Source: Clostridia bacterium
Lineage (GTDB): Bacteria; Bacillota; Clostridia; TANB77; RGIG9151
Direction of reading: 5' to 3'
Assembly (NCBI GenBank): GCA_016287855.1
Contig: JAEEXS010000001.1
Location: 1 to 37,256, forward strand
Length of the DNA: 37,256 nt
A program made the position numbers and the translations under genes. Position 1 is the first letter of the stretch. Every line of letters starts with the position of its first letter. Shown here in pieces: positions 1,267-34,504 of this stretch. A model generated the notes under the pieces. The model did not search any database. It was not told the DNA's origin and saw only the letters and a list, made by a program, of their open reading frames with translations.

Positions 1267-1899
1267 ATGACTTTATATTATCGAAGAAGGCGTAGGCGAA
1301 TAATTTTATTCATAATTTTACCCTTAATAATTACTTTTTTAGCAATATACTTTTATTCAGAAATCTCAAGAAATTTCGTAGACTTAAGCCAAGAAAAAGT
1401 CTATTCTGCCTGTTTTAACCTAATAAATTCTGTTATATCAGATAAAATTTCTGAAATAGGTACAGAAAATATTATTGAATATAAATATGATTCTAATGGT
1501 TCAATCATCGCAGTAAATGCAAATGTAGTTGCAATGAACATTTTAAACACAAAAATTGCGGAAGAAATAACAAACAACTTGTCAAAACTAAACAATCTCT
1601 ATGTAAAAATTCCACTTGGAAGTTTTTTCTCCAGCAATATATTGGCAGGAGTCGGTCCAGATATTCCAATTCGTATACTTCCTTTAAGTATAGTTCATAC
1701 AGAATACAATACCGAATTTACATCTACTGGAATCAACCAAACTCAACACAAAATATTTATAAAAATAAATTGCACAGTTGGTGTTTTATCTTCGTTATCT
1801 AGTCGCACACAAGAAATAAATATCGAAATCCCTATTGCTGAAACTATAATTATTGGAAACGTACCTCAAACATTTTTTCAAGTTCCACAGCAAAACTAA
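1267..1899 (+). CDS. yunB: sporulation protein YunB-like
   Basis: 210-aa ORF with an arginine-rich N-terminus and one TM segment. A later stretch KIPLGSFFSSNILAGVGPDIPIRILP...TGINQTQHKIFIKI resembles the YunB family as I remember it. SD is AAAGAGG. Confidence 0.65.
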   Translation: MTLYYRRRRRRIILFIILPLIITFLAIYFYSEISRNFVDLSQEKVYSACFNLINSVISDKISEIGTENIIEYKYDSNGSIIAVNANVVAMNILNTKIAEEITNNLSKLNNLYVKIPLGSFFSSNILAGVGPDIPIRILPLSIVHTEYNTEFTSTGINQTQHKIFIKINCTVGVLSSLSSRTQEINIEIPIAETIIIGNVPQTFFQVPQQN

Positions 1900-6264: not shown

Positions 6265-6502
6265 TAAAACAAAAAACGTCATCCTAAAAAGGACGACGTT
6301 GTCGTGGTACCACCTTAATTCGTAATAAACATATTACCTCAAAATATTTAACGCATATTACACGGCATACTCTACTCAATTTCAAATATGCAACTCCCAA
6401 GCTACCTTCAATTGTTAAAATTAAGAAAAGCTCTCAGCCGGTGACTTTTCATTTCTGTTAATTTGTTGCAATTTACTCCTCTTGTTCACAGTTTTTCAAT
6501 AT
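6265..6502 (-). promoter_or_regulatory. T-box leader (Val specifier) with promoter and terminator/antiterminator
   Basis: Minus strand:
- promoter TTGACA (6532-6537), 17 bp, TATATT (6509-6514)
- specifier-loop-like GAAAAGUCA (GUC = Val)
- AGAGA and AGUA-type boxes
- T-box sequence AAUUAAGGUGGUACCACG
- terminator ACGUCGUCCUUUUUAGGAUGACGUUUUUUG (6271-6300). Confidence 0.88.
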
Positions 6503-7567: not shown

Positions 7568-9664
7568 ATGAATTATGAATTACTTGCACCAATTGGTTCA
7601 GCTATCGCCCTACTTTTTGCTGTTTATTTAGCATTAAAAGTATTGCGTGCTCCTGAAGGAAACGACACAATGAAAAAGATTTCAAGCCATATTCGTAAAG
7701 GTGCAAATGCCTACTTAAAACGCCAATATAGCATAGTTGGAATATTCTTTGCAGTTATGACTGTAGTACTTGCTATAATGGCTGTATTTGGTTATGTTAC
7801 ACCATTCGTTCCATTTGCCTTTTTAACCGGTGGTTTCTTCTCTGGTTTATCTGGTTTTATCGGAATGAAGATTGCTACTGCTGCTAACGCAAGAACAGCA
7901 AATGGTGCTAATGAGAGTCTTAATAAAGGCCTAAGAATTGCTTTCTCAGCTGGTGGCGTAATGGGATTTACTGTTGTAGGTCTTGGATTATTAGATATTT
8001 CAATCTGGTTCTTCTTCCTAAAATGGTGGTATTCAAATCCTGAACTTGCTTTAACTGCTGCAGAACAAATTGAAAAAATTACTTCTGCTATGTTAACATT
8101 CGGTATGGGTGCTTCTTCTATGGCTCTTTTCGCAAGAGTTGGTGGTGGTATCTTTACTAAAGCAGCCGATGTTGGTGCTGACTTAGTAGGAAAAGTTGAA
8201 GCTGGTATTCCTGAAGATGATGTTCGTAACCCTGCTACAATAGCTGATAATGTTGGAGATAACGTTGGAGACGTTGCAGGTATGGGTGCTGACTTATATG
8301 AATCATATGTTGGTTCAATTATTTCTACTAGTGCTTTAGCTGTTGCTGCTGGATACGGATTTGCAGGAGTTTCAATCCCTATGGCTATGGCTGCTATTGG
8401 TATTTTAGCTTCTATTATAGGTACTTTCTTAGTTAGAACTAAAGAAAATGCCGATCAAAAATATTTATTAAATGCACTTAGAAAAGGTACTTGGGTTAGT
8501 GGTATAATAATTGCAGTTGCTTCTTTCTTCTTAATTAAAACTGTATTTCCTGATAAAATTGGTATTTGGGGTTCTGTTATAACAGGTCTTGTTGCTGGAA
8601 TATTAATTGGATTCTTTACCGAGTACTATACTTCAGATACATATAAACCTACTAAAAAGTTAGCTGGAATGGCTGAAACTGGTTCCGCTACTGTTATAAT
8701 TGGTGGTTTATCTTTAGGTATGTTATCTACTGTTATCCCTGTTTTAATAATTGGTATAGCAATATTAATAAGTTATTGGTTATCTGGCGGAATGGAAGTT
8801 TATACTCACGGATTATATGGTATAGGACTTTCTGCAGTAGGTATGTTATCTACTTTAGGTATTACATTAGCTACTGATGCTTATGGTCCTGTTGCAGATA
8901 ACGCTGGTGGTATTGCTCAAATGTCTGGTCTTGATGAAGAAGTTCGTCGTAGAACTGATGCTCTTGATTCTTTAGGTAATACTACTGCTGCTACTGGAAA
9001 AGGATTTGCAATTGGTTCTGCAGCTTTAACTGCACTTGCACTTTTAACTTCATATATTGAAAGAATTAAGATTATAGATCCAGAATTTAATTTTGATTTA
9101 AGTATAACAAACCCTACTGTATTAATTGGTTTATTTGTTGGTGCTATGTTAACATTCTGGTTCGCATCAATGACAATGAGCGCTGTTGGTAATGCCGCAA
9201 AGAGTATTGTTATTGAAGTAAGACGTCAATTCAAAGAAATTAAAGGAATCATGGAAAACAAAGCAGAACCTGATTATGCAAAATGCGTAAATCTTTGCAC
9301 AAAGGCTGCTCAAAAAGAAATGATTTCTCCAGCATTAATCGCAATTGTTGCTCCTATCGTTACAGGTCTTATCTTGGGCGTAAACGGTGTTACAGGATTA
9401 CTTGCTGGTGCTACAGTAACTGGATTTATCTTAGCTATTATGATGGCTAACTCTGGAGGAGCTTGGGATAATTCTAAGAAATATATTGAAGCTGGAAACT
9501 TTGGTGGAAAAGGATCTGATCCTCACAAAGCAGCTGTTGTTGGAGATACAGTAGGAGATCCATTCAAGGATACTTCTGGTCCTTCAATAAATATATTAAT
9601 TAAACTTTTATCTATGGTTTCAATCGTATTTGCAGCTCTAATTGTTGCATTCCATATATTCTAA
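7568..9664 (+). CDS. hppA: membrane-bound pyrophosphate-energized cation pump (K+-dependent subfamily)
   Basis: 698 aa and polytopic, with motifs DNVGDNVGD and GDTVGDPFKDTSGPS. GNTTAATGKG carries Ala rather than Lys, which is the K+-dependent signature. Strong SD GAGGAGGGG. Confidence 0.95.
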   Translation: MNYELLAPIGSAIALLFAVYLALKVLRAPEGNDTMKKISSHIRKGANAYLKRQYSIVGIFFAVMTVVLAIMAVFGYVTPFVPFAFLTGGFFSGLSGFIGMKIATAANARTANGANESLNKGLRIAFSAGGVMGFTVVGLGLLDISIWFFFLKWWYSNPELALTAAEQIEKITSAMLTFGMGASSMALFARVGGGIFTKAADVGADLVGKVEAGIPEDDVRNPATIADNVGDNVGDVAGMGADLYESYVGSIISTSALAVAAGYGFAGVSIPMAMAAIGILASIIGTFLVRTKENADQKYLLNALRKGTWVSGIIIAVASFFLIKTVFPDKIGIWGSVITGLVAGILIGFFTEYYTSDTYKPTKKLAGMAETGSATVIIGGLSLGMLSTVIPVLIIGIAILISYWLSGGMEVYTHGLYGIGLSAVGMLSTLGITLATDAYGPVADNAGGIAQMSGLDEEVRRRTDALDSLGNTTAATGKGFAIGSAALTALALLTSYIERIKIIDPEFNFDLSITNPTVLIGLFVGAMLTFWFASMTMSAVGNAAKSIVIEVRRQFKEIKGIMENKAEPDYAKCVNLCTKAAQKEMISPALIAIVAPIVTGLILGVNGVTGLLAGATVTGFILAIMMANSGGAWDNSKKYIEAGNFGGKGSDPHKAAVVGDTVGDPFKDTSGPSINILIKLLSMVSIVFAALIVAFHIF

Positions 9665-9719: not shown

Positions 9720-9795
9720 TGGAGCTCATAACCGGAGTCGAACCGGTGACCTCTTCATTACCAATGAAGTGCTCTGCCTGCTGAGCTATATGAGC
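9720..9795 (-). tRNA. tRNA-Thr (anticodon GGT)
   Basis: Reverse complement GCTCATATAGCTCAGCAGGCAGAGCA-CTTCA-TTGGTAA-TGAAG...GGTTCGACTCC...TATGAGC-T-CCA. Confidence 0.92.
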
Positions 9796-22130: not shown

Positions 22131-22337
22131 ACACAAAAAAATTCCCGCCTATGCCGTTTATTAGAGCTATTTCCGAGCCTGCGTAAGCAGGTGGGTTTCG
22201 TCTTATATATTTCACGTTTCCCATTCCGTTTTTCAACGAGGGCCTACAATCGATATATAAAGTTAAGAATCCCATATAAATTGTGTTGGTTCGAAATAAC
22301 CCTATCACACGTACATCGCAGGAATTTATTTTCCTAT
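22131..22337 (-). ncRNA. ssrS: candidate 6S RNA (ssrS-like rod-shaped RNA)
   Basis: The 290-bp spacer has no credible ORF.
- Minus-strand promoter: TTGAAA (22368-22373), 17 bp, TAAAAT (22345-22350).
- Closing stem 22139-22148 / 22318-22327 (10 pairs, one G-U valid only on the minus strand) runs straight into U7.
- Second stem 22168-22179 / 22288-22298.
- Central unpaired region with a CCUGC-UUAC-GCAGG hairpin on its 3' side (22178-22191).
- Long imperfect apical stem.
Size is about 200 nt. Ends and strand are approximate. Confidence 0.45.
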
Positions 22338-29061: not shown

Positions 29062-29958
29062 ATGAAAAAATTTTTATTCATATTTTTAGGGATTTTCTTA
29101 ATATATGCATTATACAAGGAGATCCCGGGAAATATATCTAGTAATAATTCTAAAAAAATTTTTATGACGGTTTCAAAAACAAATGATATCGTTGAGCTCG
29201 ACTTAGAAGAATATTTAAAAGGAGTACTACTCGCAGAAATGCCTATGAGCTTTTCTTTAGAAGCATTAAAAGCCCAAGCTGTTGCCTCAAGGACATATAC
29301 AATAAAAAAACTTGAAAATGGAGATGCTATATGTGATAACTCTGCTCATTGCCAAGCGTGGGTAGATCCGACTGGCTCAGAATATTATGAAAAGATTTCG
29401 GAGGCAGTAGAAGAAACCTGCGGCGAAGAATTAACTTATTTAGGGGAGCCGATTGAAGCCTTTTTTCATTCGGCTAGTGGAGGAGCTACAGAAAATTCAG
29501 AAAACGTATGGGCAACCAAAAAGCCATATCTTGTATCCGTAGAAAGCCCAGGTGAAGAAGAAATAATGCAAAATTTCTATAGTACATTAGAAATTACATA
29601 TGAAGATCTTATAAAAAAAATAAATGCCTATAAAGGCACTCAACTAATAACAACTTCTAAATTAAAAGATAAAATAAAAATACTTTCAAGGACTAATGGG
29701 AAACATGTAAAGGAAATAAAAATACAAAATTCGACATTTTCTGGCACAGAAATAAGAAATATACTTGAATTACGTTCAACAAATTTTAATATTGAGCTCA
29801 CAAATAACTCAATTATATTTAATGTCTCTGGGTATGGCCATGGTGTCGGCATGAGCCAATATGGTGCCGAAGCCATGGCTAAAAGTGGAAGTACATACAA
29901 AGAAATACTATCTCACTACTACCCAGGAACATCACTTAAAAAATATAACTCTATTTAA
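29062..29958 (+). CDS. spoIID: stage II sporulation protein D (lytic transglycosylase)
   Basis: SpoIID/LytB domain motifs [42 protein letters not shown]-terminal TM anchor. Confidence 0.9.
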
Positions 29959-31174
29959 TAATAATCTTTTTATAGTTTTTCTTACCACGTCTTACTATTA
30001 TTCCGTCGCCTTCTAGTTCCTTTTTAGTAAACGTCAATTTAGTATCTGTTATTTTATCATTGTTTACACTAACTCCGCCTTGCTCTATTGCACGTCTACC
30101 TTCGCCTCTTGATGGAACTAACTCACTTTTCTGAAGAATAGCTAAGATATCTATTACCCCATCAGTTAAATCTTCGTCTGTAAGTTCTACTGTTGGCATA
30201 CCTGCAGAATCCCCTGCACTAAATATAGATCTTGCACTCTCCATAGCACGATTTGCCTCTTCTTCCCCATGAACAAGCTTTGTAAGTTCAAATGCGAGAA
30301 TTTCTTTAGCTTTATTAAGTTCAGAGCCTTCCCAACTCTCCATTTTCTTAATTTCTTCAATAGGTAAAAATGTAAGCATTTTTAAGCATTTAATAACATC
30401 ATCATCTGCTACATTTCTCCAGTATTGGAAAAACTCAAATGGAGAAGTCTTATTTGGATCAAGCCAAACTGCTCCACTTTCAGTTTTACCCATCTTTTTT
30501 CCTTGAGAATTAAGTAATAAATTAATTGTCATAGCATAAGCATCTTTACCAAGTTTACGACGAATAAGTTCAGTCCCTCCAAGCATATTACTCCATTGGT
30601 CGTCTCCACCAAATTGCATATTGCAACCATATTTTTGGAATAAAACATAGAAATCATAGCTTTGCATTATCATGTAATTAAATTCAAGGAAAGTTAAACC
30701 TCTTTCCATCCTTTGTTTGTAACATTCAGCTGTAAGCATTCTATTTACAGAAAAATGAGGCCCTATCTCCCTAAGCATTTCAACATAATTTAAGTCTAAA
30801 AGCCAATCTGCATTATTTACAATAAGAGCCTTCCCATCTGAAAAATCAATGAATTTGCTCATTTGTTTCTTAAAGCATTCACAATTGTGAGCAATATCTT
30901 CCTTTGTAAGCATTTTACGCATATCTGTTTTCCCAGAAGGATCGCCTATCATACCAGTTCCTCCGCCAACTAAGGCTATAGGTTTATTACCAGCCATTTG
31001 AAGTCTCTTCATAAGGCACAAAGCCATGAAATGACCAACATGTAGACTATCTGCTGTAGGGTCAAAACCAATATAAAAAGTTGCCTTACCATTATTAATT
31101 AATTCTTTAATTTCTTCCTCATCAGTAAGTTGAGCAAGCAATCCTCTTTCTTTTAATTCATCAAAAATTGTCAT
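29951..31174 (-). CDS. tyrS: tyrosine--tRNA ligase
   Basis: HVGH (HIGH) and KMGKT (KMSKS-type) motifs, C-terminal S4-like domain, 407 aa. SD is AAAGGAGGAA. Confidence 0.96.
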
Positions 31175-31195: not shown

Positions 31196-31471
31196 TTTTC
31201 AAAAAAATAACTCTCGTCCTAGAAAGGACGAGAGAAAATCTCGTGATACCACCTTAATTCGTAAATAACTCGCATTATCTACCTCATAAAGTACAGCCAA
31301 AAGCGATACTTTTGCGTTATAACGTACGCCCACGTTCAAGCCTACTAAAATTTCAGCCGAAAGCTCAAAGATGTATTCATAATTAACTTTTCTTGCACCT
31401 CTCACCAACCGGTAACTCTCTTTTAGCATTATTAATTACTACTTCTTCTTATCAACGCCTCTTATTTAATT
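31196..31471 (-). promoter_or_regulatory. T-box leader (Tyr specifier) with promoter and terminator
   Basis: Minus strand:
- TTGACA (31501-31506), 17 bp, TAAACT (31478-31483)
- specifier-like GAAUACA (UAC = Tyr)
- T-box AAUUAAGGUGGUAUCACG
- terminator CUCUCGUCCUUUCUAGGACGAGAG plus a U-run (31201-31234). Confidence 0.88.
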
Positions 31472-31617: not shown

Positions 31618-31689
31618 ATGAATAAACTTGTTAAAATTATATTCTTGATTATACTTTTTTACATACTTCTTATTGAGGTATGTTATTAA
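31618..31689 (+). CDS. candidate 23-aa hydrophobic micro-protein
   Basis: Found by eye, not in the track. AAAGGAGG lies 7 nt before the ATG. Translation is MNKLVKIIFLIILFYILLIEVCY-stop, and its own terminator follows 14 nt later. Confidence 0.4.
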   Translation: MNKLVKIIFLIILFYILLIEVCY

Positions 31690-31702
31690 AGTTAGTCAAG
31701 AG

Positions 31703-31736
31703 AAAAAGCGAGGGTACGACCTCGCTTTTTCTTTTT
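31703..31736. terminator. intrinsic terminator after the micro-ORF
   Basis: AAAAAGCGAGG-gtacga-CCTCGCTTTTTCTTTTT, A/T-flanked on both sides. Confidence 0.75.
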
Positions 31737-31823
31737 AAATGAATAAACTTGTTTTTGAGCTTTCGCTCTATGTAGTGATTATACACCACATTGTATACTC
31801 CTGTCAATCTTTTATCCCCCATT

Positions 31824-31852
31824 GTATAAATAAAAGAAATTAGGCAATAATT
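31824..31852 (+). promoter_or_regulatory. possible forespore (sigma-F/G type) promoter for the M23 peptidase gene
   Basis: GTATA (31824-31828), 14 nt, GGCAATAATT (31843-31852). My recollection of the sigma-F consensus is GywTA-N15-GgnrAnAnTw. The -10 part fits at every specified position, but the spacer is one nt short. Confidence 0.35.
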
Positions 31853-31871
31853 ATATTTGGGAGGAATTATT

Positions 31872-32495
31872 ATGAAAAAATTATTCTTTATAACAGCTTT
31901 AAGCATACTTATCTTTATATTTGTTGCATTTTTTTCAATACAACTTACTAACCAAAAATCTGCACCATATGAAGAAAATATAAAGGAAAATATAACAAAA
32001 GTAACCACGACGGAACCAGATATTAAAATTTTAACGCAAACATTTGATGTTACCGAGGCAGCTGAAATGGAAAACGACGCGCCACTTGTATTTTCATATC
32101 CCGTATCTGGAGAAATAGGACTTTCCCATTCTCCAGACACACTTATTTATTCTAAAACACTAAAAGAATGGACAACCCACAACGGCATAGATATTCAAGC
32201 AAAACGTGGCACTCCAGTTTTTGCAGCCGAAGCTGGCACAATAAATTCAATTACCGAAACTCCAGGTATGGGAATAGAAATTGTTATTTCGCATAAAGAT
32301 GGCTATAAAACTATATATTCCAATCTTTCAACTAAAGAAATGGTAAAAGTCGGGCAAAGAGTAGAAAAAGGGCAAGTAATAAGTGGTATAGGTAATACCT
32401 CCTCTTTTGAATACTATGAACCGGAGCATTTGCATTTTGAAATATATAAAGATAACAAACCATTAGATCCTCAAAAAATATTAGTTGGGGATTAA
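31872..32495 (+). CDS. M23 (LytM) family metallopeptidase, SpoIIQ-like membrane-anchored form
   Basis: N-terminal TM (LFFITALSILIFIFVAFFSI), then a LytM domain with intact metal ligands HNGIDI and HLHFEI. The ATG at 31872 lies 6 nt after GGGAGGA. About 207 aa, similar to clostridial SpoIIQ. Confidence 0.8.
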   Translation: MKKLFFITALSILIFIFVAFFSIQLTNQKSAPYEENIKENITKVTTTEPDIKILTQTFDVTEAAEMENDAPLVFSYPVSGEIGLSHSPDTLIYSKTLKEWTTHNGIDIQAKRGTPVFAAEAGTINSITETPGMGIEIVISHKDGYKTIYSNLSTKEMVKVGQRVEKGQVISGIGNTSSFEYYEPEHLHFEIYKDNKPLDPQKILVGD

Positions 32496-32544
32496 AAATT
32501 TACATTTTTTTCTTAGAATAATAAAAATATTTTTACACACAATA

Positions 32545-32985
32545 ACACCATAAGGGTTTGCAATGGTTGAGCCAAGAGGGGTTTTTTCTACCCTTCGGTC
32601 AAAGGTCATTAGATACAATTCTTCTCTGGCCGGCGAGCAGAGCTTATATGATGGCGGCAGGTGTAGTTTTAATATATGGTTTACCTCTTATTTTACAATT
32701 TGTTTTTAATAAAGGTCCCTATATCGTAAGCTATCATATATGTTCGAGCTAAGACTGATATTTGTGCCGCAGGTATAATTGCTAAAGAGGGAGCACTCTC
32801 CCTCTTCAGCAAGCTCTTAAAATTTGTTAAGAGTTAACTAACGAGTCATTGATTCGTAAAGGTGCATATATCAGTCGAACAAAGGTCTTCCCGTGTGGTG
32901 TATCGTGAAGTTTTTAACTTTGCGTGTAATTGCTAGGCAGGGCTGTAGTGTAGATTATTGCAGGCCCTTAATTGTTTATTTAAAA
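32545..32985 (+). ncRNA. unclassified large structured RNA candidate (independent RNA or structured 3' UTR)
   Basis: ORF-free, G+C-enriched 484-bp spacer between convergent genes. It contains at least eight hand-paired helices, including a four-way junction. The five long-range/junction/terminal helices that carry G-U pairs pair only on the plus strand. It ends in a hairpin (32939-32968) plus a U-rich tail. See finding. Confidence 0.5.
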
Positions 32986-34005
32986 ACTTTCTAATACACC
33001 TCTTGCAATAGCACGTCCAGCTTTTTCTAAAAAAGTATCATTTTTTAATTTTTGCAAATCACTCCAGTTAGTCATATACGCTACCTCTACTATAACTGCT
33101 GGCATATTTGTTTTATTTAATACATATAAATTATTTCTATTTATTACACCCTTGTTATATGTCCCCGCTTCTGTACTTACAACTTGTTGTAACTTTTGTG
33201 CCAAACTATATGCAGTAATTCCATTTTTTACTATACTACTTGTAGGATATAAAACTTCTGTACCTTTTATAGAAGTTTTGTTAGGCATTGCATTATTATG
33301 CACGCTAACAAACAAATCTGCATTCAAATAATTCGCTAAAGTAGTTCTTGAAGCTAAAGTAGTCGTAACGTCTTCAGTCCTTGTCATATAAACTCTAACT
33401 CCATTCTTTTCTAACTCATCTTTTACATACTTTGCAATTTTTAAATTAATATTTTTTTCATAAATTCCACCATAAGTTGCACCAACTTCTGTTCCCCCAT
33501 GTCCTGCATCAACTACAACTATCTTATTTACTGCTTTAGGATATTTACTCCTTCTATCATAACTTCTACTAACATTTTGTGCTCTTTCCATGATTGCATC
33601 ATCTTCAATTACAATATTAACAATCTCCGTATCTTGATACCACTCTATCTTAGCATCTATATAATCTTCCAAAAATTTAATTGGTACCATAGTTGTAGAA
33701 TTTTTTAATACCGGAAACGTATCAATTTCTTCCTCTACTTCATTAACAATAACCTTATTCGAGTTCAGTGTTAAAACTATATTATCTTCTCCATTATCTA
33801 CAGTAACAATACCATTCGGATCCCATCCCACATTGCAATCAAATATCTCTGCTATAATTCTAAGCGGAAGTAAAGTCCTATTATTTACAATTATAGGTTC
33901 TTCCGGCATATTAATTTTACTAAAATTAACCCTAACATCAACTGCACTGGCTGTTGAAAACAATAAAAAAATAACAAACAAAAAACTTATATAGATTTTT
34001 TTCAT
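32980..34005 (-). CDS. N-acetylmuramoyl-L-alanine amidase (Amidase_3) with copper-amine-oxidase-like N-terminal domain
   Basis: Signal peptide. N-terminal domain NNRTLLPLRIIAEIFDCNVGWD. Catalytic domain VVDAGHGG...FVSVHNNA...VEVAYMTN. Confidence 0.88.
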   Translation of the reverse strand: MKKIYISFLFVIFLLFSTASAVDVRVNFSKINMPEEPIIVNNRTLLPLRIIAEIFDCNVGWDPNGIVTVDNGEDNIVLTLNSNKVIVNEVEEEIDTFPVLKNSTTMVPIKFLEDYIDAKIEWYQDTEIVNIVIEDDAIMERAQNVSRSYDRRSKYPKAVNKIVVVDAGHGGTEVGATYGGIYEKNINLKIAKYVKDELEKNGVRVYMTRTEDVTTTLASRTTLANYLNADLFVSVHNNAMPNKTSIKGTEVLYPTSSIVKNGITAYSLAQKLQQVVSTEAGTYNKGVINRNNLYVLNKTNMPAVIVEVAYMTNWSDLQKLKNDTFLEKAGRAIARGVLESF

Positions 34006-34210: not shown

Positions 34211-34504
34211 TTATACCCCGCCAGCTTTCCCAACAAGAATAAGACCTGAAATAAGAAGTATAATGAATCTTATAACAACAAACACTACTATTCCAATTAT
34301 TAAATATAACGCATCTTTTAATTCTTTTTTTCGTTGATTTTCCAATTTAACCTTTTTTTCTTCATTCTTAGTAATCTTAATCATTAAGGTTAAAATCAAA
34401 ACCCATATTAAAATAAGCACCTCTATTAGTCCCAGAATTATCGGCACATAGACCAACACCCCAGCTAATATAATTAAAAGTGGGTTATTAAGCGGATTAC
34501 TCAT
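34211..34504 (-). CDS. hypothetical small membrane protein (hydrophobic ends, K/E-rich central loop)
   Basis: 97 aa. Hydrophobic N- and C-terminal segments flank KITKNEEKKVKLENQRKKELKD. SD is GAGGAGG. No family recognised. Confidence 0.55.
   Translation of the reverse strand: MSNPLNNPLLIILAGVLVYVPIILGLIEVLILIWVLILTLMIKITKNEEKKVKLENQRKKELKDALYLIIGIVVFVVIRFIILLISGLILVGKAGGV

Follow-up and report, generated by a model that had tools for sequence, protein, structure and literature searches.

A probable new class of large structured RNA, likely transcribed from a sporulation-type promoter, in Clostridia-type spore-formers

What occupies the 484-bp gap (32496-32979) between two convergent genes, one for a SpoIIQ-like M23 peptidase and one for an Amidase_3 protein, in the genome of a Clostridia bacterium? 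The gap lies in a stretch of 37,256 nucleotides (nt) of contig JAEEXS010000001.1 (assembly GCA_016287855.1, positions 1 to 37,256 of the forward strand), which we analysed as a whole and call the window. A first-pass annotation had described the gap as G+C-enriched and free of any credible open reading frame (ORF), had proposed a large structured RNA read from the plus strand, either independent or a long 3' untranslated region (3' UTR) of the peptidase mRNA, and had named an Rfam search and an analysis of conservation and covariation among relatives as checks. Our analysis of the locus and its relatives leads us to a reading to which we give a probability of about 60%: positions ~32550-32970 of the plus strand are an independent gene for a structured non-coding RNA (ncRNA) of ~420 nt, belonging to an uncatalogued family of Clostridia-type spore-formers and transcribed from a sporulation-type promoter. 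Within this reading, the comparative evidence establishes a conserved, independent and compactly folded RNA whose ends are protected by pairing in a helix, P1, and this RNA is real and probably represents a new class of large structured RNA.

The ORF list and Pfam confirm the gap and its convergent flanks, and its G+C content (0.355-0.385) is indeed higher than that of the adjacent sequence (0.24-0.31) and of the whole window (mean 0.326). Positions 32540-32985 fold on the plus strand to -156.3 kcal/mol (z = -7.8 against dinucleotide shuffles) and on the minus strand to -106.5 kcal/mol (z = -4.2), and the plus-strand fold pairs the 5' end (~32551-32568) with the 3' end (~32952-32969). G-U is the commonest type at many pairs of the family consensus, where the opposite strand would have A-C; because G-U pairs are so frequent, we take the plus strand to be the transcribed one, as had been proposed.

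The first relatives were fetched through homologues of the M23 peptidase in a peptidase-anchored search of GTDB genomes, in which the RNA stood near the peptidase only in the closest lineage (~66-67% peptidase identity); loci with 32-53% peptidase identity had no RNA within 6 kb. The close relatives of the RNA lie on the contigs that we label L016/L017, L018/L019/L001, L022-L025, L026-L028, L030 and L031, joined later by L140. Metagenome contigs were scanned for the exact block CGAGCTAAGA-N8-12-TGCCGCAG, which gave at least 120 stretches, and iterated nhmmer searches gave, among the matches listed, full-length matches in about 50 loci (E 1e-19 to 1e-114), from which 38 distinct full-length members were obtained, 382-461 nt long and with 35-65% G+C. 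The alignment on which the comparative results rest, A5, holds 35 sequences, namely 34 of these 38 members and the window copy, and was made with MAFFT, which is blind to structure. The family hidden Markov model (HMM) matches the window at 32538-32970 (E = 8e-86), and neither blastn nor the HMM found a second copy there. Clostridium estertheticum CP086249.1 carries the RNA by direct match, reached through its SprT-like neighbour, and exact-sequence look-ups of neighbouring proteins returned Moorella (Neomoorella) thermoacetica for L114, Moorella sp./Peptococcaceae for L046 and L094, and Tepidanaerobacter for L061; the placement in M. thermoacetica, Peptococcaceae and Tepidanaerobacter is thus drawn from the neighbours. 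The SprT-like loci of Marinisporobacter and Petroclostridium had no RNA within 5 kb. A pattern match on viral contig L152 was due to chance: that contig carries a permuted tmRNA at 1362-1563(-) and is not a family member.

Two divergent copies stand ~0.2-0.9 kb apart in L043, L069, L072, L077, L092 and L113. The paralogues of the C. estertheticum-like lineage fall into a 'type A' of ~459 nt and a 'type B' of ~392-412 nt, with pairs at L043 4212-4654(-) and 5614-6002(-) and at L113 11565-11971 and 12220-12675; in L043 a Germane-domain gene sits between the two.

Covariation supports the fold overwhelmingly. The RNAalifold consensus of the 35 members comprises 127 pairs in 12 helices; 94 of these pairs show at least one compensatory double change, and every long helix contains 8-13 covarying pairs. 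Standard pairs fill 93.6% of the alignment cells, as against 38-41% when the 3' partners are slid by 1-3 columns; cells changed on both sides number 877, as against 120-205 in the slid controls; and the covariation score is 0.627, as against 0.10-0.13. None of 500 shuffles attained the observed covariation values. A Moorella-type member folded alone adopts the same architecture at -214.7 kcal/mol (z = -17.3), with its minimum free energy structure identical to the centroid.

In this architecture (Table 1), P1, a helix of 17 bp, joins the two ends of the RNA and encloses five arms: P2, P3, P4/P5, P6 and P10-P12, of which the P6 arm contains a variable region together with P8/P9. Across the family, P1 has compensatory changes at 12 of its 17 pairs and is paired in 96.3% of cells, while P2 has 10 double-change pairs and is 98.7% paired; the P2 of the window is shorter than that of most members. 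The window pairings of P2 and P3 were read by eye from the sequence, P3 running from G604-C631 through A608-U627 and then from A611-U625 through A613-U623. P5 and a clade-specific extension span 32662-32723, and the inner hairpins of the window's P6 sub-domain show compensatory changes at the level of the clade. In the 3' arm, double-change pairs number 2 in P10, 13 in P11 and 10 in P12.

Table 1. Features of the RNA locus and of the surrounding window
Feature	Position	Strand	Remarks
-35-like box GAATA	32515..32519	+	17 nt upstream of second box
-10-like box CACAATA	32537..32543	+	ends ~8 nt before P1
RNA gene, about 420 nt	32550..32970	+	5' end inferred from promoter geometry, 3' end from P1 end
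P1, 5' strand	32552..32568	+	pairs with 32953-32969; all 17 pairs form in window
P2 hairpin	32571..32599	+	GCC/GGU (32571-73/32597-99) and GAGGGGU/ACCCUUC (32576-82/32590-96)
J2/3 linker CAAA	32600..32603	+	within near-invariant UCGGYCAAAGGU block of A5
P3 hairpin, shortened in window	32604..32631	+	10 double-change pairs in family
J3/4 linker GGCGAGCA	32632..32639	+	family consensus GGMGRGMA, conserved A5 columns
P4 (32640-54/32731-45) enclosing P5	32640..32745	+	double-change pairs: 12 (P4), 8 (P5)
J4/6 linker GAGCUAA	32746..32752	+	invariant in 35/35 aligned sequences
P6 (32753-68/32861-76) with variable sub-domain	32753..32876	+	8 double-change pairs
3' arm: P10 (32879-80/32948-49), P11 (32884-99/32929-44), P12 (32904-24)	32879..32949	+	
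P1, 3' strand	32953..32969	+	followed by UUAAUUGUUUAUUU
M23 peptidase (SpoIIQ-like)	31857-32495 (as listed)	+	ORF list, Pfam
Cu_amine_oxidN1/Amidase_3 gene	32980-34005	-	Pfam
SpoIID	29062-29958		sporulation-related neighbour (Pfam)
6S, T-box and tRNA features of window	22138-22327, 31221-31464, 6286-6498, 644-1143, 9723-9795	-	Rfam

The helices that the first-pass annotation had paired by hand fared unevenly against this consensus. Its helix 32645-32654/32731-32740 proved to be part of P4, and its helix 32753-32768/32861-32876 is P6 itself; the hairpins 32781-32810, 32812-32835 and 32841-32857 do lie within P6, the first two in the window's clade only. GAGGGG and CCCUUC (32576-32581/32591-32596) do pair, but as the conserved P2 and not as a mere alternative fold, and the helix 32571-32581/32621-32630 finds no support; 32621-32631 is the 3' strand of P3. 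What had been taken for a terminal hairpin at 32939-32968 is no hairpin: 32953-32969 pairs with 32552-32568 to form P1; this closing helix and the P11/P12 arm (32884-32944) were both missing from the list. The hairpin 32682-32716 is an insertion that only the window, L016 and L140 possess. Of the three occurrences of the heptamer AAAGGTC that had been pointed out, those at 32601 and 32881 fall on junction motifs conserved in the family (CAAAGG and AAAGR) and that at 32711 falls in the clade-specific insertion.

The most conserved parts of the RNA are the linkers between the arms (GA, CAAA, GGMGRGMA, GAGCUAA, GAGCAAAG and GUAGYGUAGA), which are near-invariant and rich in purines. The columns of the J4/6 linker belonged to the exact pattern with which most of the distant members were fished, and its invariance is thus partly preselected; seven close relatives found by synteny share the invariant blocks and also keep UCGAGCUAAGA unchanged. 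The core block of the C. estertheticum copy reads GGGUCUCCGCAGG and that of the metagenome members GGUGCCGCAGG, which means that the exact-pattern scan under-samples the family and that the 'invariant' core is in part an effect of ascertainment. GNRA tetraloops (GUCGARAGAU) cap P9, P12 and often P3 in most lineages; in the window's clade, those on P9 and P12 have been replaced and two hairpins have been added inside P6. A pairing of the GGMGRGMA linker with an invariant UGCCGC was considered and rejected, the C/A variation in the alignment, read by eye, being uncompensated.

When the upstream sequences are anchored on the first base of P1, a two-box promoter appears: G[T/A/C]ATA, a spacer of 17-18 nt, and nAnAATA, the second box ending 6-10 nt before P1. 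The first box occurs as GTATA, GAATA or GCATA (GTAAT in some close relatives) and the second as CATAATA, CACAATA, TACAATA or TAGAATA. The arrangement, at a fixed distance from P1, is present in 26 of the 35 members, where ~0.026 per sequence would be expected by chance; the weak promoter element proposed earlier, TTTACA at 32499, does not coincide with these conserved boxes. For comparison with known sporulation promoters, two-block position weight matrices (PWMs) were trained on mapped C. difficile promoters of the σF/σG, σE and σK types (Saujet et al. 2013, PMC3789822, Tables S6 and S7), with leave-one-out accuracies of 85%, 89% and 83% and C. difficile as the only training species. The best matrix for the 35 family promoters was σF/G in 23 cases, σE in 12 (mostly near-ties) and σK in none, and the window promoter scored 6.9, 5.1 and -0.1 bits, respectively. 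In the divergent lineages (Moorella-type, Tepidanaerobacter, L039, L046, L058, L059 and L084), σF/G wins by ~7-20 bits, and scores of at least 12 bits for σF/G were reached by 10 of 35 members as against 5 of 700 random windows. A scan for σ70-type promoters gave only chance numbers. The string CACAATAAT, as in the window's -10 box, also occurs in the mapped σG promoter of C. difficile sspA (Saujet et al. 2013, Table S6, PMC3789822). From these matches, the promoter is likely of a sporulation type, with the forespore σF/σG type favoured and σE possible for the window's own clade. In the promoters of the type A paralogues, GG directly precedes the -10 box (GGTAAGAATA), which is also the case in σF promoters, and the scores are clearly of the σF/G type.

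At the other end, a canonical terminator follows P1 by 2-20 nt, without overlapping it, in at least 15 of the 35 members, and L018, L046 and L130 have visible terminator-like stems after P1 that the strict scan missed. Between P1 and the terminator, the two paralogue types of the C. estertheticum-like lineage share a short palindrome, conserved as AUCCUAGGAU or UCCCUAGGGU (L069, L072, L076, L092, L097, L113, L153 and others); it could form a small hairpin or, being self-complementary, could serve as a site of dimerisation.

That the RNA is a gene in its own right, and not the 3' UTR of the peptidase mRNA, follows from the way in which the gene arrangement around it differs between contigs. The first-pass annotation had rightly noted that no terminator separates the peptidase stop codon (32495) from the RNA in the window, which would suit a long 3' UTR, but two or three minus-strand genes intervene between peptidase and RNA in L018, L019 and L026, where the RNA still adjoins the amidase in L018 and L026 (the intervening genes are DUF6320, an unnamed gene and, in L018, CpXC; L026 has in addition a 121-aa plus-strand ORF between peptidase and RNA). 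Neither an M23 peptidase nor an amidase was found beside the distant members, whose neighbours are unrelated to those of the window (SprT-like/Germane-domain/SbcCD-like, HD_5/PHP and others). Together with the conserved promoter immediately upstream of P1, this makes a 3' UTR very unlikely and leaves, of the two possibilities offered at the outset, the independent RNA. Much the same low probability attaches to a cis-regulatory leader (a riboswitch, a T-box-like or a protein-binding element) for a downstream gene. In L022 and L031 the RNA comes after the peptidase, no amidase is present, and a same-strand ORF of 144 aa without a Pfam match (L022 1763-2197; L031 6312-6746) begins 27-29 nt after the RNA; with a GGAG ribosome-binding site and no intervening terminator, this ORF may share a transcript with the RNA there. 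Elsewhere, however, the gene that comes next either converges on the RNA (window, L016, L030) or is unrelated, in agreement with the earlier view that this is no classical 5' riboswitch; the terminators do not overlap P1, and known cis-leaders are far smaller than this five-arm RNA of 380-460 nt. A decayed or small protein-coding gene, for which one could cite a 64-codon TTG-initiated frame at 32558-32752, is hardly credible: the frame has no Pfam match, the longest stop-free stretch in the 35 members averages no more than in shuffled sequence (69.7 vs 70.2 aa), indel lengths show no bias toward multiples of three (127 vs 251), and conservation lacks codon periodicity while substitutions compensate one another across helices. 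The absence of a credible ORF, claimed from the window, is confirmed, and the family as a whole lacks a coding signal. We likewise consider it most improbable that the locus is a mobile or other DNA-level element (a miniature inverted-repeat transposable element, or a site at which DNA recombines or replicates) or a strongly diverged member of a known RNA family such as RNase P, OLE, raiA, ROOL, GOLLD or 6S; its ends are inverted repeats (P1) and its size is like that of RNase P RNA, but the window holds a single copy, no family member was found in the phages, plasmids and viral contigs searched, the many G-U pairs and the strong strand asymmetry point to RNA, and Rfam gives no match even at E<=10 in 600-nt searches.

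An alternative that deserves more weight, though we hold it to be unlikely, keeps the same independent structured RNA and has it transcribed by the housekeeping σA or a stationary-phase factor without being specific to sporulation, the upstream box being incidental or belonging to another factor. The -10 boxes TACAAT, CATAAT, TAGAAT and TATAAT are acceptable σA hexamers, the matrices discriminate imperfectly (83-89% in leave-one-out tests, from a single training species), and the spore-forming status of some RNA-bearing lineages is not firm. Against this, no member has a good TTGACA-like -35 box or a TGn-extended -10 box (the best σA match across members reaches only 6-9 of 12), a G-initial -35 box stands at a fixed spacing of 17/18 nt across lineages from 35% to 65% G+C, high σF/G scores are far commoner among the members than in random windows, and sporulation genes adjoin the RNA in two unrelated lineages (SpoIID/M23/SpoIIIA in one, a Germane-domain protein in the other). 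We therefore prefer an independent RNA with a sporulation-type promoter.

Several observations nevertheless weigh against this preferred reading. The σF/G and σE scores are near-ties in the window's clade and among 'type B' copies from the C. estertheticum group, and the sigma assignment is a match to a consensus; an A+T-rich -10 box like TACAAT might also be used by σA. A scan of 32300-33300 for terminator-like sites gave none, and the window copy thus lacks a recognisable terminator; processing back to P1 may define its 3' end, or that end may overlap the 3' end of the amidase. The ends, abundance and timing of the transcript are predictions from the sequence. No protein partner or gene association was found to be conserved across the family, and a scan of the unpaired columns for pseudoknots and tertiary pairs returned only low-complexity noise. 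The loss of the P9 and P12 GNRA loops in the clade of the window weakens a mechanism based on tetraloops as a universal feature. Finally, the family may have been described outside Rfam 15 or the searchable literature.

As far as they were searched, both sources were silent. Rfam 15 (4227 covariance models) gave no match to the gap at gathering threshold; at E<=10, the 600-nt region returned only noise of 10-20 bits from eukaryotic long non-coding RNAs, microRNAs and small nucleolar RNAs, and the Moorella-type copy alone gave nothing relevant. Thirty-three further family-bearing loci (14 at E<=1, the others at gathering threshold) gave no match to the RNA either. As far as covariance models reach, this excludes RNase P, tmRNA, signal recognition particle RNA, OLE, raiA, ROOL, GOLLD, HEARO and ylbH/CsfG. 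The literature on large ncRNAs, the Breaker-lab surveys, and publications on forespore small RNAs, C. difficile transcription start site maps and Moorella do not describe the RNA. It nonetheless has the features by which orphan large ncRNAs are described: more than 300 nt, covarying helices, conserved junctions, transcription signals of its own and no coding capacity.

Its closest functional counterparts are two large orphan RNAs of Bacillota, raiA/ModT and OLE, and it belongs to neither. The raiA/ModT RNA (RF03072) is likewise a large, independently transcribed and structured orphan, knock-outs of which disturb sporulation (PMC10861870, PMC11706538). At ~200 nt, however, it is about half the size and has another architecture, and the raiA model has no match to this RNA. 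We know of no sporulation-type promoter reported for raiA. OLE (RF01071), another large and ornate ncRNA, occurs in anaerobic and extremophilic Bacillota, has many conserved nucleotides at its junctions, and includes Moorella-type organisms in its range; it is ~610 nt long, forms a ribonucleoprotein (RNP) with OapA/B/C and usually has a conserved neighbourhood, whereas the RNA described here measures 380-460 nt and has no conserved neighbour, and the OLE covariance model found no match in the window region or the tested family loci.

In probable regulation, the closest parallels are CsfG and Bvs196/S357, stand-alone forespore ncRNAs that are transcribed by σF/σG and have their own terminators and targets that are at best poorly defined (PMC9147052; PMC3574147). 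CsfG, which lies in the ylbG-ylbH spacer of Bacillaceae, is 136 nt long, has CU-rich loops and binds Hfq (PMC3574147), lacks the five-arm fold; the ylbH model, of which CsfG is the reverse strand, found no match on either strand, and our RNA is three times larger. Bvs196/S357, a 294-nt RNA of the hinT-ecsA spacer in the B. subtilis group, is set apart by its description, which includes no five-arm fold. ROOL and GOLLD are large ornate RNAs that self-assemble into homo-oligomers (PMC12286853); they measure 580-800 nt and are often associated with phages or tRNAs, whereas here there is no model match and no phage or viral copy, and oligomerisation of this RNA would be pure speculation. Bacterial RNase P RNA is of similar size (~350-400 nt) and shares the P1-closed ends, the radiating arms and a single-copy gene with its own promoter, but neither RF00010 nor RF00011 matched, its universal P4/CR-I motif GGAAAGUCC is absent from the sequence of the RNA, and, unlike RNase P RNA, some genomes carry two divergent tandem copies of this RNA. 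The HEARO covariance model had no match, and the neighbours do not form an IscB-type context. The 6S RNA is a rod-like helix of ~190 nt with a central bubble, in contrast to a branched five-arm fold, and the genuine 6S RNA of the window (22138-22327(-), 98.5 bits with RF00013) is separate from this gene. The smtA 'Soda Lake RNA' was set aside, being restricted to Thioalkalivibrio.

The genes around the window copy bear out the sporulation and cell-wall neighbourhood described in the first-pass annotation: Pfam finds SpoIID, the M23 peptidase and the amidase, and SpoIIIAH with the remaining spoIIIA operon lies downstream of the gap. The listed start of the peptidase is a TTG at 31857, but all close homologues have 207 aa and begin with MKK, for which reason translation probably starts at the ATG at 31872; a 156-aa minus-strand ORF (31670-32140) that overlaps the peptidase gene is probably spurious. 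A hydrophobic ORF of 97 aa without a Pfam match (34211-34504(-)) separates the amidase from spoIIIAH in the window, in place of which L016, a 93%-identical relative, has a 395-aa gene of the N_methyl (prepilin-type) family (8392-9579(-)). Elsewhere in the window, Rfam matches comprise the 6S RNA, seven tRNA genes and two T-box leaders, one of which precedes the gene for tyrosyl-tRNA synthetase (29951-31174). Contigs L006 and L011, with Clostridia-type M23 homologues, are filed as 'Spirochaetales bacterium' and 'Barnesiella intestinihominis', probably through binning contamination.

In other lineages the surroundings are of a different kind. The C. estertheticum copy (L153 6634-7094; about 3,068,958-3,069,418 of CP086249.1) is flanked by a Germane-domain gene on one side and an SbcD-like gene on the other. 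In Moorella-type loci, an HD_5 (HD-GYP-like) gene preceded by a cyclic di-GMP-I riboswitch (L114 2831-2919; L046 3717-3808) adjoins the RNA on one side and a PHP-domain gene stands on the other.

How might such an RNA work? We propose that it would be transcribed from its own two-box promoter during sporulation, with a transcript predicted from the promoter geometry and P1 to start 1-3 nt before P1 and to end just after it. The RNA might then act in trans as a compact fold, in spore development or in the spore itself. Because conservation sits in junctions and tetraloops and not in accessible single strands, action through the fold is favoured over action through base-pairing, and the role of a base-pairing regulator is unlikely. 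Its most likely role could be that of an RNP scaffold or of a self-assembling particle held by tetraloop-mediated tertiary contacts, and a catalytic RNA is also conceivable. A bolder version, in which this ornate class of RNA is made only in the sporulating cell and is packaged in the spore, or acts on it, as a catalytic or self-assembling particle, we regard as rather doubtful. The neighbours recognised by Pfam, the M23 peptidase and spoIIIA operon in the window's clade and a Germane-domain protein in that of C. estertheticum, recall the SpoIIIA, SpoIIQ and GerM proteins, which in B. subtilis form a trans-envelope complex. A functional link of the RNA to this complex is one possibility that the gene order suggests, to be treated as a lead only, because other lineages show no such link.

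Large and intricately folded bacterial RNAs are rare, and those known (RNase P, tmRNA, OLE, GOLLD, ROOL and raiA) have each given new biochemistry or open problems; the structural support for this family is as strong as for any such class. The family spans lineages from 35% to 65% G+C and is present in cultured C. estertheticum and apparently in M. thermoacetica. Few developmental programmes have been studied as well as endospore formation, yet to our knowledge no conserved large structured RNA has been assigned to it, and our literature searches found none. We expect the sporulation-type promoter to offer a testable handle on the timing of the RNA, the compartment in which it is made and its effect on spores, and, if the bolder version given above is true, no earlier large structured RNA would be known to serve endospore development exclusively.

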